UHGV virus genome: UHGV-1546769
Length of the DNA stretch: 10,201 bases
Source: a virus
Strand: one strand, 5' to 3'
The notes under the pieces are model-generated. The model ran no database searches, was not told the DNA's origin, and saw nothing but the letters and a program-made list of their open reading frames with translations. Shown here in pieces: positions 2,764 through 5,980 of the stretch. Positions within the stretch are counted from its first letter, which is position 1, and every line of letters begins with the position of its first letter. Made by a program: the position numbers and the translations under genes.

Positions 2764-3756
2764 TCACCCCCTGAATCCTGCCGGGATCTGGCTGTAGTCC
2801 ACGTTGTCGTAACTGGCTTTGAAGTACGGGTCTTCACGTTTTTCTGTGTGCGTGCTGACGGACGGCGATAAGCGCAGGGAAAGCTCATCCCATTTTTCCC
2901 GCAACTTCGACGGGCTGAGCACGTTACGGCACCAGAACGGATCGCGGCTGACGCGGCTGTACATCTCGCAGATTTGTTTGTGAGTACGACCATCCTGCAC
3001 ACACATCAGGCGAATTTCGTTTGCCCATGCTGTCCAGTTCGGTTCTTTGGGACGAACCACCTCGCCGTCACATTCGGCGGCCTGCTCGTACAGGGCGATG
3101 ATTTTTTTCCAGAGCCACTGTGCGCAGGTCAAATCATCCTGCGTTCCCCACTGGCGCTTTTTAGGGCTGAATACAACCGCATCAGGATGGCGAGTTAAAA
3201 ACTCCTGTTCAGCCGTTTGCGTGTCCGGTTGCGAAGCGTCCGGACGAGAAGAGGTTTTATTCTCTGTAGTAATCTCTGTTGTATTCTCTGTAAGATCATT
3301 GGGCCATTTTGACCCGATGACAGCGTGTCGTTTTGAACCAATGGATCGTGTCATTTTGCGCCCATCCATCAGGTCACTTTGACCCGATGGAGAGGTGCAT
3401 TTTGACCTGATGGATTCGTTCACTTTGACCTCTTCTAAAAGCTCACTTTCATAGTTGATCGTGTAGAAGTTGGTCATGTCACGCTTCGATTTATTGAGTT
3501 GCTCGCGACGCAAAACCCCAAGTGATTTCAGGCTTGCAAATGTGCGTTTCAGAGTGGACTCTGACCAGAACGGAAACTGCTCCAGCCACTGTTCTGTCGT
3601 GTTATAAACCCAGCGAATTCCGCCATGCTCAGTGCCTGAATTCGTTTCATTCAGCCAGTAATGAAGCTGCTGCAACACAATTGCCTCATTCAGACCAATA
3701 CGGCATGCAAGATCACGATTTATCACAATGGGCTGGGATGTCATTAACAGGCTCAT
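2764..3756 (-). CDS. Replication initiator protein, lambda O-like, with the origin embedded in the gene
   Basis: 330 aa. It sits where O sits in lambdoid phages (after cro and a cII-like gene). The N-terminal region looks like a winged-helix DNA-binding domain, the central Thr/Glu/Asn-rich linker coincides with the iteron array and AT-rich repeats, and a separate C-terminal domain follows, which mirrors lambda O architecture. ATG at 3756..3754 with GAGG 6 nt upstream. Confidence 0.8.
   Translation of the reverse strand: MSLLMTSQPIVINRDLACRIGLNEAIVLQQLHYWLNETNSGTEHGGIRWVYNTTEQWLEQFPFWSESTLKRTFASLKSLGVLRREQLNKSKRDMTNFYTINYESELLEEVKVNESIRSKCTSPSGQSDLMDGRKMTRSIGSKRHAVIGSKWPNDLTENTTEITTENKTSSRPDASQPDTQTAEQEFLTRHPDAVVFSPKKRQWGTQDDLTCAQWLWKKIIALYEQAAECDGEVVRPKEPNWTAWANEIRLMCVQDGRTHKQICEMYSRVSRDPFWCRNVLSPSKLREKWDELSLRLSPSVSTHTEKREDPYFKASYDNVDYSQIPAGFRG
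3255..3300. repeat. AT-rich segment with three ATYCTCTGT repeats next to the iterons (candidate DNA unwinding element)
   Basis: Copies at 3259-3268 (attctctgta), 3272-3280 (atctctgtt) and 3283-3292 (attctctgta) in a locally AT-rich stretch. In the direction of O transcription it lies immediately after the iterons, as the AT-rich region does in lambda ori. Confidence 0.4.
3304..3432. repeat. Replication origin iterons: six direct repeats, consensus about tCAyTTTGACCCGATGG, period about 23 bp
   Basis: Repeats read directly at 3304-3320 (ccattttgacccgatga), 3327-3344 (gtcgttttgaaccaatgg), 3350-3367 (gtcattttgcgcccatcc), 3373-3390 (gtcactttgacccgatgg), 3396-3413 (tgcattttgacctgatgg) and 3419-3432 (ttcactttgacctc). 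They lie inside the O-like coding sequence with regular spacing of about two helical turns. Confidence 0.7.
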
Positions 3757-3925: not shown

Positions 3926-4104
3926 AGGACTGTCTCCTTCTGCCGGTTGAAATCACCCACAGCCCACTCTGCAAAGCTGTGGGTTACAATTTCCCTGTCA
4001 CCTGGTACATTCACTGCATAGCAATACTCCACCTTCGCTTTTCCACCCGGTACAGGAAGCGCAATCAGTTGCGAGCGACGGTAGTGTGTTGTTAAACTGT
4101 TCAT
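3766..4104 (-). CDS. Hypothetical protein, translationally coupled to the CII-like gene
   Basis: 112 aa. The ATG at 4104..4102 overlaps the upstream TGA at 4103..4101 (ATGA), with GGAG about 10 nt upstream. The N-terminal half ([28 protein letters not shown]) looks protein-like; the C-terminal half is Ser/Thr/Asn-rich and overlaps the better-looking 70-aa frame. Stop TAG at 3768..3766 lies 10 nt before the O-like start. Confidence 0.45.
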
Positions 4105-4685
4105 GCGTTAGTTTCTCCACAACCAGAAGCAATCGACGCCACGACGCCCGGAGCTGCACACTCGCGGGCGTTACTCTTTTCCGGCGCACAAAAAACACGA
4201 AATAACAGTGTTAAATGCTCCTGCCACTTCGCCATTACTTGGTAGCTGTTCTCTTCGATTTGCTCACGCTCAGCCTGGTCAATAACTCCATCAGCAGTTG
4301 CCTTGCGTAAGTACTGGGAATGCTTGCCAATCCATTCTATTGACTCCATCAGCCGCTGATTAATGTCACCATTGTCAATGTCATCAATGACCACCAGCGG
4401 CACAAACACCCCATTACTACGACGGGCTATTGCATCTGTTACATGCCTGGTACCACTGGCATCCTGTAAAACCATGGCCCACTCAAGTGGAAAAATTTGA
4501 TCCCCACCGCTACGCAGTCTGTTATGCAATTGATCTTTTGCTGGGGTGATATCATCAGATTTATACAAACCAAGAATTTCTGCTGCTTCCTCATAGCCAT
4601 GAGGTAAATCAGCAATCGTTCTTCGTATTGCTGCCACCAGCCATGCTGGTTGTTTATCAACTTTCCATTCAGGTTCTTTACCCAC
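4101..4685 (-). CDS. CII-like regulatory protein (YdaT-like: CII-type N-terminal region with a C-terminal extension)
   Basis: 194 aa, second gene after cro. The segment [42 protein letters not shown] resembles the lambda CII HTH region (AEAVGVDKSQISRWKRDWIPKFSMLLAVLEWG). The start is GTG at 4685..4683 with GAGGA about 8 nt upstream. The last ~25 aa are low complexity. Confidence 0.55.
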
Positions 4686-4712: not shown

Positions 4713-4910
4713 TTATGCCGCAGCACTGTTAGTCTTTTGATATAAAGACACGTCAACTTTCAGTTTCCCGTTAGTAATTTTTTCTAACTGGTACGCTCGG
4801 CCTTCAGGAATAATCTCAGGCCACTCTGAAACAGACGGATGCTTAATACCTAGGGCTTCGGCGGTTTTACAAACTCCGCCGAAATAATTAATCACGTCGG
4901 ATTTCCGCAT
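4713..4910 (-). CDS. Cro-like / YdaS-family HTH regulator
   Basis: 65 aa, divergent from cI across the operator region. The segment GGVCKTAEALGIKHPSVSEWPEIIPEGRAYQLEKITNGKLKV fits the YdaS/Cro-like small HTH pattern. ATG at 4910..4908 with GGGAGA about 6 nt upstream. Confidence 0.75.
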   Translation of the reverse strand: MRKSDVINYFGGVCKTAEALGIKHPSVSEWPEIIPEGRAYQLEKITNGKLKVDVSLYQKTNSAAA

Positions 4911-5005
4911 TTCTGTCTCCCGTTAAATTACGTTAAGCAGAAATGTAGGATATCCAACATGCAAATGTCAAGAATCCTACATGGGCATGTGGTAGGATTG
5001 CCTAC
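4911..5005. promoter_or_regulatory. Right operator/promoter region (oR, pR towards cro, pRM towards cI)
   Basis: An 18-bp palindrome ATGTAGGATATCCAACAT lies at 4943-4960 and a split inverted repeat ATCCTACAT-N4-ATGTGGTAGGAT at 4974-4998, with a further half-site overlapping the cI start. On the minus strand a TTGACA -35 (plus coordinates 4966-4971) and a TACATT -10 (4942-4947) with 18-bp spacing sit directly upstream of cro, and the operator overlaps the spacer and -10. Confidence 0.65.
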
Positions 5006-5659
5006 ATGATGAACATGAGTGATCGTATTCGCCAAAGGCGAAAAGAACTGAACCTGACACAACAAGCACTGGCTGATTTGACTGGTGTGAACCGTGTCAC
5101 GGTTACTGGATGGGAAAAGGACGACTACCAACCAAATGGAGCCAACCTTCAAGCCCTAGCCAACGCACTTAAATGCGATCCTCTGTGGCTTGTTAGCGGA
5201 AAAGGCTCGCCTGAACCAAAGATAAATCTAAAACCTGAAATATTCGCAGTTAAAAAAGTCCCCCTCATCTCGTGGGTTCAGGCGGGTTCATGGACAATGA
5301 CGGAGCCTGGTGTCAGGAAAGAAGATGCTGAAGAGTGGGTTTATACTACCGCCCTTGTATCAGAAATGGCATTTGCACTACGGGTCCGTGGTGATTCAAT
5401 GACCAATCCCCTCGGCTCACCATCGATACCAGAAGGTTCTATCGTTATCGTAGAGCCAGATATTATTGATACAGAGTGTATTAACGGAAAAATCGTTGTT
5501 GCCCATATCAATGGTGGGCAAGAAGCGACACTCAAAAAATTTGTTGAGGACTGGCCGAACAGGTATCTCGTCCCACTAAATCCTAACTATAAAACTATTG
5601 AATGCGGTGAGAACTGCAGAATAGTTGGTCTTGTCAAACAAGTAATAATGGATTTTTGA
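5006..5659 (+). CDS. Prophage CI-type repressor (N-terminal XRE-family HTH plus C-terminal S24 LexA-like autopeptidase domain)
   Basis: 217 aa. HTH region RRKELNLTQQALADLTGVNRVTVTGWE; candidate Ala-Gly autocleavage site in SWVQAGSW; S24 catalytic Ser motif VRGDSMTNP and Lys in ATLKKF. Three in-frame ATGs at 5006, 5009 and 5015 with only a weak AGGA upstream, as for leaderless or weakly initiated cI transcripts. Confidence 0.9.
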   Translation: MMNMSDRIRQRRKELNLTQQALADLTGVNRVTVTGWEKDDYQPNGANLQALANALKCDPLWLVSGKGSPEPKINLKPEIFAVKKVPLISWVQAGSWTMTEPGVRKEDAEEWVYTTALVSEMAFALRVRGDSMTNPLGSPSIPEGSIVIVEPDIIDTECINGKIVVAHINGGQEATLKKFVEDWPNRYLVPLNPNYKTIECGENCRIVGLVKQVIMDF

Positions 5660-5679
5660 CACATCTTCCTCACTATCGC

Positions 5680-5706
5680 AAAACCGGGGTATCCCCGGTT
5701 TTTTTA
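5680..5706 (+). terminator. Rho-independent terminator downstream of cI (potentially bidirectional)
   Basis: Perfect stem ACCGGGG (5683-5689), loop TAT, CCCCGGT (5693-5699), followed by a T7 run and preceded by an A-run. Confidence 0.7.
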
Positions 5707-5719
5707 TGAGCCTATCTTT

Positions 5720-5780
5720 TTATGTAGGATAACCAACATAAACTCTTGACACTCACATGTTGGATATCCTACATTTGTTT
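5720..5780 (+). promoter_or_regulatory. Left operator/promoter region (oL/pL)
   Basis: Two 18-bp operators: 5722-5739 (ATGTAGGATAACCAACAT) and 5757-5774 (ATGTTGGATATCCTACAT, the exact reverse complement of the oR operator at 4943-4960). They flank a TTGACA -35 at 5746-5751, with TACATT at 5770-5775 as -10 (18-bp spacer). The promoter-operator core is nearly identical to pR but on the opposite strand. Confidence 0.65.
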
Positions 5781-5933
5781 TTAGAGTTGTGGTGAATGCG
5801 CAGGCTGATGCGCGAAAGACATTGCAGCTATTGCGGAAAAGAGCTGTTCGGCGGGGCAATTAAACGCCCGTGAGAGTCTGAAATAACCGCAAGCCGGAGA
5901 TCAGCACCGGTCACCACAACAGCCACTGCTTTG

Positions 5934-5980
5934 GCGGTACCAGTTTGTACACTCGCTTCCGGCTGGTACCGCTCTTTTTA
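5934..5980 (+). terminator. Candidate intrinsic terminator or regulatory hairpin in the pL leader
   Basis: Perfect 10-bp inverted repeat GCGGTACCAG (5934-5943) and CTGGTACCGC (5964-5973) with a 20-nt loop, followed by TCTTTTTA (5974-5980). It lies in a ~340-nt untranslated leader between pL and the first substantial gene. The segment CGCTCTTTTTA also resembles a boxA element. Confidence 0.4.

Follow-up and report, generated by a model that had tools for sequence, protein, structure and literature searches.

A phage repressor gene flanked by near-identical, oppositely facing promoter-operator cores raises two questions: what kind of switch it belongs to and which immunity specificity it would confer. 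We addressed these in a window of 10,201 nt of viral DNA, in which a first-pass annotation made from the letters alone had recognized the immunity cassette of a lambdoid prophage. That identification stands, as a repressor with HTH_3 and Peptidase_S24 domains lies between a leftward promoter facing cro and a rightward, early-left promoter. Sequence comparison makes it very probable that the region is a lambdoid lysis-lysogeny switch on the plan of P22 immC, with a different operator specificity.

The repressor gene, cI (5006..5659, plus strand), encodes 217 aa with Pfam matches to HTH_3 (1.1e-15) and Peptidase_S24 (3.7e-25). Its N-terminal domain (residues 4-66) matches the P22 C2 structures 1adr, 3jxb and 2r1j with E values of 4e-14 to 6e-14, and the protein is 44% identical to P22 C2 over 207 residues (E 2e-55). 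The match to lambda CI (3bdn, 7e-25) is aligned across the Ala-Gly site, the Ser and the Lys. Across 19 homologues, no change occurs at the Ala93-Gly94 cleavage site, Ser131 or Lys177/178. Asn44, the equivalent of P22 N46, is present in a P-N-G motif.

Divergently from cI, on the minus strand, lies cro (4713..4910; 65 aa), a member of the P22_Cro family (Pfam PF14549, 7.6e-22) that matches the P22 Cro structure 1rzs with an E value of 7e-12 and has a GGGAG Shine-Dalgarno sequence 6 nt 5′ of its ATG. The second gene of this pR operon (4101..4685, minus strand) encodes a CII-like activator of the YmfL/Phage_CP76 type (Pfam PF06892, 1.3e-6; PHROG 101, "CII-like transcriptional activator," 3.4e-62); the E. 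coli KE54 annotation places it in the YmfL family. An O-like replication initiator (2764-3756, minus strand) lies downstream of both. A divergent cro beside cI, followed by cII-like and replication genes, is the gene order of a lambdoid switch.

Operator copies and promoters on the two sides of cI

The 18-bp sequence ATGTAGGATATCCAACAT at 4943..4960, which we call OR1, recurs as its exact reverse complement, ATGTTGGATATCCTACAT (OL1), at 5757..5774, as first noted from the letters. A palindrome noted at 5722..5739, ATGTAGGATAACCAACAT (OL2), proved to be another copy, matching OR1 at 17 of 18 positions. When we ran the motif search that the first-pass annotation had suggested, operator 18-mers were confined to the flanks of cI: these three are the only matches with up to 3 mismatches in the 10.2-kb window (0.00 expected, 200 shuffles), and the whole 50-kb phage Lys8385Vzw, which has the same cassette, contains the same three copies only. 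Searching with the half-site ATGTWGGAT, allowing up to 1 mismatch, gave seven matches in the window, all within the two intergenic regions and 0 elsewhere.

The predicted repressor operator consensus is ATGTWGG-ATAT-CCWACAT (18 bp). The sites have outer bases at positions 2-7 and 12-17 and an A/T-rich 4-bp centre (ATAT, ATAA, GAAT or ATTG). The LexA box has the consensus CTGT-N8-ACAG, which the operator does not fit, and we rejected this identification. The P22 operators are likewise 18-bp palindromes with an A/T-rich 4-bp centre; in P22 the repressor contacts positions 2-7 and 12-17, and the uncontacted, A/T-favouring centre is read through N46 (PMC4267663). By extension, the contacted bases here would be the same ones, and OR1 matches at 12/12 of them. 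A literature search with four operator 13-mers found no paper containing any of them, so the operator sequence of this cassette is apparently undescribed.

Each 18-bp copy nearest an early gene sits within a promoter, and the earlier description of these promoters was accurate: TTGACA-N18-TACATT occurs at 4971..4942 on the minus strand (pR) and at 5746..5775 on the plus strand (pL), each scoring 10/12 to consensus in a promoter scan, with 27 of 30 bases identical from -35 through -10. Both promoters have a suboptimal 18-bp spacer and lie inside a 40-nt inverted repeat (4934-4973 and 5744-5783, 85%). At pR, TTGACA occupies 4971-4966 and TACATT 4947-4942, and OR1 spans the spacer and the first 5 bp of the -10 element; transcription is predicted to start at ~4935 and read into cro. 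This layout is kept in 20 related loci, which include loci from Trabulsiella, Enterobacter, Pantoea, Erwinia, Proteus, Morganella, Rahnella, Kluyvera and Kosakonia. At pL, OL1 sits in the same way, over the spacer and 5 bp at the start of the -10 element. This promoter is colinear with the annotated P22 PL, and its predicted start at ~5782-5784 would send transcription into yfdP, yfdQ and onward.

The mirror arrangement would arise because pR shares the promoter-operator layout of pL, in which the -10 hexamer TACATT is built on the TACAT end of the operator. Only the CCTACAT half followed by T yields TACATT, so the same operator sense is forced at both promoters, and the operators face each other in mirror orientation.

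OL2 lies upstream of the pL -35 element, with its centre 35 bp from that of OL1, and the 17-bp gap between the two sites is kept in 11 of the 12 related loci inspected and in P22. Upstream of OL2, we found nothing operator-like that could serve as a third OL site; the position equivalent to P22 OL3, 29 bp upstream, is occupied by the cI intrinsic terminator (5680..5705, plus strand), whose 10-nt arms pair perfectly around a 3-nt loop, AAAACCGGGG-TAT-CCCCGGTTTT, with a T run after the stem. In related loci, too, an equivalent hairpin lies after cI.

Three predicted sites at OR and a candidate cI maintenance promoter

Between OR1 and cI, two further sites can be placed. OR2, ATGTCAAGAATCCTACAT (4965..4982), is a weak site centred 22 bp from OR1, with a perfect right half, an exact half-site at 4974-4982, and a left half that overlaps the pR -35 element; it matches at 13/18 positions overall and 9/12 of the contacted positions. 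OR3, TGGTAGGATTGCCTACAT (4990..5007), has its centre 25 bp from that of OR2 and reaches two bases into the cI ATG; a repeat search listed it as a 72% copy, and it matches at 11/12 of the contacted positions. The OR2 block is kept in the 20 related loci, and OR3 is the most conserved block across them. It may be that ATGTCAAGA, the left half of OR2, is kept only as the carrier of the pR -35 hexamer, in which case OR2 rests on its one perfect half-site and its conserved position.

This three-site layout differs from the one first described, in which each side of cI had two operators and the second left-hand one was a split inverted repeat at 4974-4998. The repeat is there as sequence: AATCCTACATG and CATGTgGTAGGATT form an imperfect inverted repeat, and both arms contain good half-sites. 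Yet one arm belongs to 4965-4982, as its right half, and the other to 4990-5007, as its left half; each pairs with an outer partner to make these two 18-bp units. The arms also stand tail-to-tail, their ATGT ends facing over a 7-bp gap, whereas the three strong sites are head-to-head. In the 20 related loci, the length of this gap (7-8 bp) and its sequence vary, whereas both 18-bp blocks are kept, and P22 shows a three-site arrangement too. We therefore regard it as very improbable that the split repeat is bound as one unit, with two operators per side, and we place three sites at OR and two at OL. The broader proposal, that further sites on both sides would allow several repressor dimers to bind, agrees with the five predicted sites, whose positions are kept in relatives: the three OR blocks recur at fixed spacing in the 20 loci, from at least 10 genera, and the two OL blocks are kept in the 12 of these 20 also inspected downstream of cI.

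Several features had gone unmentioned in the first-pass annotation: the position of OR3 over the cI start codon, a PRM-like promoter within OR2 and OR3, and the parallel with P22 immC. The candidate PRM (4970..4998, plus strand) consists of a -35 element AAGAAT (4970-4975), a 17-bp spacer and a -10 element TAGGAT (4993-4998). Its hexamers fall at positions 6-11 of OR2 and 4-9 of OR3, registers identical to those of the annotated P22 PRM, which reads AGGAAT-N17-TAAGAT compared to AAGAAT-N17-TAGGAT here. Based on this homology, the predicted start is ~5004-5006, which would make the cI mRNA leaderless or nearly so, as the lambda cI mRNA is. In the Morganella locus L034, only the first cI ATG is present. 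We rejected a PRM of lambda geometry (OR2 centre at -42), since transcription would then start at ~5015, where the Met codon is unconserved.

We also considered a cI maintenance start further upstream, in which TACAT(G/T) in OR2 acts as the -10 element, the mRNA has a ~16-nt leader with AGGA (4994-4997) as its Shine-Dalgarno sequence, and occupancy of OR1 and OR2 represses cI rather than permitting it. In favour of this start are the position of the AGGA, 8 nt 5′ of the ATG; several relatives in which OR2 ends on the right in TACATT (the pR and pL -10 hexamer); and the very poor match (2/6 to consensus) of the P22-like -35 element, AAGAAT inside OR2. Against this, the window has TACATG, without the invariant final T, and the candidate -35 element would be CCAACA. 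In P22, the closest characterized relative, the RM transcript, whose mapped start is 4 nt ahead of the c2 ATG, comes from hexamers in the registers of the candidate PRM. Moreover, a promoter repressed whenever OR1 and OR2 are filled could not maintain lysogeny. We thus consider the upstream start unlikely and favour the P22-like PRM.

With PRM so placed, we propose the following working model. CI dimers are predicted to bind the 18-bp operators. OR1, the strong site, would block the -10 element and spacer of pR; OR2, the weak neighbour 22 bp along and on roughly the same face of the helix, would be filled cooperatively, masking the pR -35 element, and occupancy of both would shut off cro, cII and replication. 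Since OR3 overlaps both the cI start codon and the PRM -10 element, cI would be turned off when repressor is abundant. On the other side, OL1 would block the -10 element and spacer of pL, with OL2 35 bp upstream, just past the cI terminator. Cro presumably binds the same sites in a different order of preference, and the repressor would be inactivated by RecA-stimulated self-cleavage at Ala93-Gly94, leading to prophage induction.

Cooperative repressor binding and contact between OL and OR across 814 bp are plausible by analogy, since the C-terminal domain of cI is homologous to that of lambda CI, with the Ser/Lys dyad and the Ala-Gly cleavage site in common, and the OR1-OL1 distance of 814 bp compares to 819 bp in P22. 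The 35 bp between OL2 and OL1 amount to ~3.3 helical turns, a non-integral number, and simple lambda-style side-by-side cooperativity is therefore not self-evident there. OR2 would be centred ~30 bp upstream of the predicted PRM start compared to 42 bp in lambda, so activation of PRM by the lambda type of sigma contact cannot be assumed.

Relation to P22 immC and other switches

The likeness to P22 extends to the arrangement of the sites. Operator centres at OR are spaced 23/25 bp in P22 and 22/25 bp here, OR3 adjoins the repressor ATG in both, OL2 and OL1 are 35 bp apart in both, and OL1 contributes 5 bp of the PL -10 element in both (P22 PL is TTGACC-N17-TAAATT). The cassette thus has the N-terminal homology, the 18-bp operators, the OR and OL spacing, and the PRM and PL placement of the P22 c2 type. 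The analogy is incomplete, however, since P22 PR lies one operator further in: it has OR2 in its spacer and OR1 over the start site, whereas pR here has OR1 in the spacer and -10 element and OR2 over the -35 element. A P22-like pR with its -35 element in the gap between OR2 and OR3 was rejected, as we found no TTGACA-like hexamer there and nothing conserved in relatives. P22 also has a third OL site, absent here; its c1 gene is replaced by a cII-like gene of the CP76/YmfL family; and the early-left operon begins with a structured RNA, without P22 gene 24 (N) or nutL.

With respect to specificity, the P22 half-site ATTTAAG differs from ATGTWGG at two contacted positions per half-site (3 and 6), and the recognition helix SNVAISQ differs from NRVTVTG at 4 of 7 residues. 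Because both the half-site and the recognition helix are different, this cassette is predicted to be heteroimmune with P22. The ATTTAAG half-site that would give it the specificity of P22 or phage 21 is not what we found. We infer from these comparisons that the cassette probably represents a different immunity type within the P22 c2-type structural family.

Changes in half-site accompany changes in recognition helix among the related loci: NRVTVTG pairs with ATGTWGGAT, SRVSVTK with AGGTAAC, S(P/A)SAVTQ with AGTAAG, and, in P22, SNVAISQ with ATTTAAG. The mEp390 repressor and those of the 61%-identity group in Enterobacter, Kluyvera and Kosakonia are only ~60% identical to cI here and have the same recognition helix, GVNRVTVTGWE. 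They share the three-plus-two operator layout, with a nearly identical OR3 (TGGTAGGATTGCCTACATG), an OR1 of ATAGTAGGATATCTTACAT, and pR hexamers TTGACC and TACTAT, and cross-immunity with this group is possible.

Compared to lambda, OR is likewise tripartite and lies between divergent cI and cro genes, with an OR1-OR3 centre span of 47 bp here and ~47 bp in lambda, and OR1 lies at about -17 relative to pR in both. Lambda operators are 17 bp and unrelated in sequence, whereas those here are 18 bp and go with a P22-type N-terminal domain. Lambda has OL1-3 compared to two OL sites here, its OL-OR distance is 2.3-2.4 kb compared to 0.8 kb here, where rexAB is absent from between the two, and its N has no counterpart. 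The Stx phages 933W and BAA2326, studied by the Koudelka laboratory, have CI-type repressors that control Stx-converting phages, as here. Their repressors are at best ~34-36% identical to cI, and their operators are unrelated in sequence to those here; the BAA2326 OR is tripartite (PMC5977221), and its sites (e.g., ATAACTGTGCGTAATG) are weakly symmetric, unlike the strongly palindromic ones here.

We found the cassette type at ≥99% identity in 136 of 5,426 complete E. coli genomes. It is also present at ≥99% identity in phages Lys8385Vzw, vB_EcoM-720R4 and SKA5; the carriers at this identity include the Stx1 phage Lys8385Vzw and three Stx2c phages. Lys8385Vzw is reported to have been induced from its host, and its authors state that CI, Cro and CII are absent (PMC7946995); we find all three in its genome, labelled "LexA family repressor," "hypothetical protein" and "DNA-binding protein."

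This distribution also bears on whether the repeats might be left over from recombination or duplication, in a prophage undergoing decay, and no longer serve as operators. The window has at least one damaged gene, dam, frameshifted by a 13-bp deletion, and the region is highly mosaic. By contrast, cI, cro and the cII-like gene are all intact, essentially the same cassette (≥99% identical) occurs in sequenced phages and in the 136 complete E. coli genomes, and the site positions are kept across genera while co-varying with the repressor recognition helix. We consider decay so improbable as an explanation that it can be set aside in favour of a maintained operator set.

The cassette is an ordinary, well-understood kind of switch with its own operator sequence, and it leaves the general picture of lambdoid switches unchanged. 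Its operator set would define the predicted immunity specificity of a prophage type also represented among Stx1- and Stx2c-converting phages, in which the repressor-operator set governs prophage induction and hence toxin release. The helix and half-site pairs form a natural series on the scaffold of P22 C2, for which co-crystal structures are known, and should be useful for work on DNA-recognition specificity.

A structured RNA predicted at the start of the early-left transcript

In lambda and P22, the early-left operon involves N and nut, a feature not general to lambdoid phages. We did not find this module here: no plus-strand ORF of at least 40 aa lies wholly between pL (5775) and yfdP (6117) that could encode an N-type antiterminator. 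N was reported absent from Lys8385Vzw by its authors (PMC7946995), and HK022 is also without N (PMC9378689), so a missing N does not exclude membership among lambdoid switches.

Instead, the first RNA made from pL would be a tRNA-shaped structured element (5786..5920, plus strand) that begins 3-5 nt after the predicted start. A 7-bp closing stem, P1, pairs 5788-5794 with 5912-5918 and is followed by a 3-nt linker, AAU, and then by P2 (5798-5813), a 5-bp hairpin with the invariant loop GGCUGA. After P2 comes a variable domain that ranges from 30 to 200 nt across copies, and then P4 (5893-5911), a 5-bp hairpin with the loop AGAUCAGCA that directly adjoins the 3′ strand of P1. The two conserved loops are complementary (GCUGA/UCAGC). 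The pL leader folds far better than shuffled sequences (z -4.7), each conserved core of the element occurs in at least 120 IMG/VR contigs, and the stems covary. Between the element and yfdP, the minimum free energy fold contains a terminator-like hairpin (5933..5979, plus strand), GCGGTACCAG ... CTGGTACCGC, followed by TCTTTTT; among 165 distinct contexts of the element, 37 have a similar hairpin and T run after it.

We compared the element and the leader to known RNAs. Rfam gave no family at gathering thresholds anywhere in the window, only chance miRNA matches at E values up to 5 within 5700-6560, and no match for the element in four other loci; a literature search with the core sequences found no paper containing them. 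ARAGORN finds no tRNA or tmRNA in the window, and the T4 stable RNAs C and D, read directly, share no core with the element. The HK022 put antiterminator was likewise rejected, since the leader resembles nothing in sequence within HK022 22-30 kb, and putL, read directly, is unrelated to it. The AgvB and AsxR anti-sRNAs are 51-60 nt long and lie at the pR′ moron site (PMC4104026), and we rejected this identity as well.

Our tentative reading, which we offer as a possibility and no firmer, is that pL opens onto a widespread, apparently undescribed family of phage RNAs in place of an N/nut module. Should the element function as an early RNA, it could take the place of N as an antiterminator that needs no protein or, alternatively, mimic a tRNA to counter host defence or the translation machinery; it would then be the very first phage product made when pL is derepressed. 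The RNA element at pL may matter more than the switch itself.

Genes, operators and promoters of the immunity cassette

The product of cI (5006-5659, + strand) contains HTH_3 and Peptidase_S24 domains. Alignments match its N-terminal domain to P22 C2 (1adr, 4e-14) and its C-terminal domain to lambda CI (3bdn, 7e-25), including the VQAG cleavage site, the GDSM serine and the KK lysine; over its full length, the protein is 44% identical to P22 C2. Divergent from cI, cro (4713-4910, − strand) encodes a 65-aa protein of the P22_Cro family and is followed by genes for a CII-like activator (CP76/YmfL family) and an O-like replication initiator. Downstream of cI, a perfect terminator hairpin (5680-5705) precedes a rightward promoter into yfdP, yfdQ, an HD hydrolase gene and further genes. 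These identities bear out the first-pass annotation of a cI-type immunity cassette of a lambdoid prophage and, together with gene order around cI, identify the left promoter as the counterpart of pR and the right one as that of pL.

As that annotation also proposed, the 18-bp operators on either side of cI are exact reverse complements: the reverse complement of OL1 (5757-5774) is the 18-mer ATGTAGGATATCCAACAT, present at OR1 (4943-4960). A further site of this type with one base changed is OL2 (5722-5739). The suggested motif search returned only these three sites flanking cI at ≤3 mismatches in the window, compared to none in 200 dinucleotide-preserving shuffles, and in Lys8385Vzw, a complete phage genome with this cassette, the only full matches are likewise the three flanking cI. 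The half-site ATGTWGGAT (≤1 mismatch) occurs seven times in the window, always within the two intergenic regions that flank cI.

The claim of near-identical promoters on the two sides was also confirmed. A promoter scan identified TTGACA-N18-TACATT at both pR (4971..4942, − strand) and pL (5746..5775, + strand), each matching the consensus at 10/12 positions, with 27/30 bases identical between the cores from −35 to −10. Both cores lie within a 40-nt inverted repeat (4934-4973/5744-5783, 85%). The operator pair takes its exact-reverse-complement orientation from the −10 element, as only CCTACAT followed by T yields TACATT.

A second operator had been proposed on each side, which holds for OL2 and fails for the split inverted repeat at 4974-4998. 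The ATGT ends of its arms, ATCCTACAT and TGGTAGGAT, point toward each other, unlike in the three strong sites, and this is the wrong dimer geometry. We therefore rejected the repeat as a single operator; each arm instead forms an 18-bp unit with its outer partner. These units are OR2 (4965-4982, ATGTCAAGAATCCTACAT), whose right half is perfect and whose left half carries the pR −35, and OR3 (4990-5007, TGGTAGGATTGCCTACAT), which was also recovered as a 72% copy in the repeat search. When scoring was limited to positions 2-7 and 12-17, those contacted by P22 repressor (PMC4267663), OR1, OL1 and OL2 scored 12/12, OR3 11/12 and OR2 9/12. Center-to-center distances are 22 bp (OR1-OR2), 25 bp (OR2-OR3) and 35 bp (OL2-OL1). 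The earlier interpretation thus identified the correct kind of system but misplaced the second left operator, and it lacked OR3, PRM and the relationship to P22.

Comparison with P22 and predicted operator specificity

The proposed comparison with known lambdoid operator sets identified P22 as the closest parallel in layout, with a different half-site. We compared the window to the P22 record, read in the c2 orientation, in which annotation covers the operator regions of OR and OL, the promoters PR, PRM and PL, and the 5′ terminus of the RM transcript. OR centers are spaced 23 and 25 bp apart in P22 and 22 and 25 bp in the window, and OR3 abuts the repressor ATG in P22 whereas it overlaps it by 2 nt in the window. 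The candidate PRM has its −35 at OR2 positions 6-11 (AGGAAT in P22, AAGAAT in the window) and its −10 at OR3 positions 4-9 (TAAGAT and TAGGAT, respectively), with a 17-bp spacer in both. The repressor transcript is annotated to start 4 nt before the ATG in P22 and is predicted to start at ~5004, 2 nt before the ATG, in the window. The OR2 center lies only ~30 bp upstream of the predicted PRM start, as in the P22 annotation, compared to 42 bp in lambda.

On the other side of cI, PL is TTGACC-N17-TAAATT in P22 and TTGACA-N18-TACATT in the window, and in both, the final 13 spacer bp together with 5 bp of the −10 lie in OL1. OL2 and OL1 centers are 35 bp apart in both, and OR1 and OL1 are separated by 819 bp in P22 and 814 bp in the window; OL3 is present in P22 and absent from the window. 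In P22, OR2 falls in the spacer of the annotated PR and OR1 covers its start site, whereas pR in the window repeats the pL layout. This copying, the "mirror" of the first-pass annotation, is common to all relatives in a 20-locus comparison.

A protein search with the repressor returned hundreds of homologues at 50-86% identity, and a locus scan using one genome per species yielded 63 loci. Across 20 loci from at least 10 genera, the cro-cI spacer contains three conserved blocks at the OR1, OR2 and OR3 positions separated by variable sequence, the most conserved being OR3, TGGTAGGATTGCCTACATG. Of 12 loci inspected 3′ of cI, 11 have an operator, 6 nt, TTGACAC, 4 nt and a second operator followed by T, giving the same 17-bp OL2-OL1 gap as the window. 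Half-site and recognition helix vary together: GVNRVTVTGWE pairs with ATGT(A/T)(G/A)GAT, GVSRVSVTKWE with AGGTAAC, GVS(P/A)SAVTQWE with AGTAAG, and the P22 helix GVSNVAISQWE with ATTTAAG. Of the indirect evidence available, this co-variation argues most strongly that the predicted operators are the repressor's targets.

Sequence analysis shows the gene identities and the positions, conservation and co-variation with the repressor of the sites, and homology with P22 and lambda suggests how the switch may operate. Repressor dimers on OR1 and OR2 would occlude pR, and repressor at OL1 would occlude pL. Occupancy of OR3 would occlude PRM and the start of cI, resulting in negative autoregulation; Cro would share the repressor's sites, and prophage induction would proceed via RecA-dependent cleavage at Ala93-Gly94. 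Stimulation of PRM by OR2 occupancy is uncertain, as is OL2-OL1 cooperation, since 35 bp corresponds to ~3.3 helical turns. OL-OR looping has been asserted in a review for 434, lambda and P22 (PMC5977221); by analogy it might connect OL and OR in this cassette, which we regard as uncertain.

Distribution and annotation

The 1.4-kb cassette is present at ≥99% identity in 136 complete E. coli genomes and in six sequenced phages (three Stx2c phages, the Stx1 phage Lys8385Vzw, vB_EcoM-720R4 and SKA5). In these records, the repressor is labelled "LexA family protein" or "repressor protein cI" and cro "hypothetical protein". According to the paper on Lys8385Vzw, this phage lacks CI, Cro, CII, CIII and N (PMC7946995). 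Its genome (MT225100) carries the cI/cro/cII-like cassette at 99.4% identity, with the genes labelled "LexA family repressor", "hypothetical protein" and "DNA-binding protein"; on this evidence, the statement is wrong for CI, Cro and CII. An ORF search found no N-like ORF in the 335-nt pL leader. A search of the accessible literature found the operator sequence in no paper. We therefore consider the cassette an ordinary lambdoid switch of new specificity, a new and uncharacterised immunity type in a class of systems that is very well known.

A tRNA-shaped RNA in the pL leader and other features of the window

The pL leader folds far better than shuffled sequences (z −4.7). Its first sequence downstream of the predicted pL start is a structured RNA element (5786-5920, + strand) with a 7-bp closing stem (5788-5794/5912-5918), an AAU linker, a 5-bp 5′ hairpin with loop GGCUGA (5798-5813), a variable domain, and a 5-bp 3′ hairpin with loop AGAUCAGCA (5893-5911) that is immediately adjacent to the closing stem's 3′ strand. 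This arrangement of stem, short linker, hairpin, variable domain and stem-abutting hairpin gives a tRNA-like outline. For covariation, each helix was evaluated on copies detected by schemes that do not use that helix. The seven closing-stem positions are paired in 91-98% of copies, compared to 57% at the next position; positions 4-7 show several pair types, and the mean run is 7.5 pairs compared to 5.4 with shuffled partners. Compensatory changes occur at four of the 5 bp of the 5′ hairpin, whose loop is GGCUGA in 41/43 copies and GACUGA in 2/43, and GCCGG/CCGGC in the 3′ hairpin becomes GCAGG/CCUGC in some copies. The two conserved loops are complementary (GCUGA/UCAGC), with little variation in either in our samples.

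The element is widespread, with at least 120 IMG/VR contigs matching its 5′ core (22 nt) and at least 120 matching its 3′ core (23 nt). At 98.5% identity, it is also found beside tRNA genes of P1-like phages. In one Klebsiella phage, tandem copies precede a cluster of tRNA genes, and another carries it downstream of a gene for an HNH endonuclease. Across 165 distinct contexts, the first feature 3′ of the element is a terminator-like hairpin in 37 and a Shine-Dalgarno sequence with start codon in 33; a tRNA gene lies within 600 nt of 25/196 copies, on the same strand in 24 of those 25. We found no Rfam 15 match and no ARAGORN tRNA or tmRNA call, and sequence comparison led us to reject HK022 put; AgvB/AsxR was also rejected. 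A literature search found the core sequences in no paper, and the element may have been described under another name.

A 7-mer at the closing stem's 3′ strand (5915-5921, CACAACA) equals the published target consensus of the GcvB sRNA R1 seed (PMC4104026), which at this length may easily be chance. Beside tRNA genes, the element alternates with a second hairpin module (closing stem GGUAAGrGyA...UrCyCUUAyC), unannotated in the records of two phage loci that carry the element, RCS47 (L071; 2420-2500, 2640-2700) and KlebP_265 (L073; 1300-1420, 1540-1610). In RCS47 this module contains a canonical T-arm, GGGTTCGAATCCC.

Between the element and yfdP (6117) lie a terminator-like hairpin (5933-5979, + strand), with a 10-bp GC-rich stem followed by TCTTTTT, and a second hairpin (5982-6068, + strand) with a ~25-bp stem. 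Similarity to mEp460, Stx2a phages, cdtI and SfV starts at 5782-5786, the predicted pL start, forming a sharp mosaic junction. The leader itself is modular: 5786-5921 is common to P1-like phages and ~5932-6120 to SfV, cdtI and ST64B, and vB_EcoM-720R4 has 714 bp in place of 5872-5933.

The pL operon encodes a PAPS-reductase-like protein (8025-8903, + strand) and a queuine tRNA-ribosyltransferase-like protein (9375-10130, + strand; PHROG 887, 2.9e-103). Pairs of this type have been linked to the modification of phage DNA by 7-deazaguanine. The module is missing from the otherwise colinear prophage of E. coli KE54, similarity to which ends at 8032. Compared to KE54, the phage Dam methyltransferase gene dam (2016-2669, − strand) carries a 13-bp deletion at ~2074 that puts its 3′ end out of frame, and the ORF consequently runs over the following gene as far as 1764. 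Located between dam and rusA in the pR operon, 1706-2032 (− strand) encodes a 108-aa protein consisting of a LexA DNA-binding domain only (PF01726, 2.6e-19), without the S24 peptidase domain.
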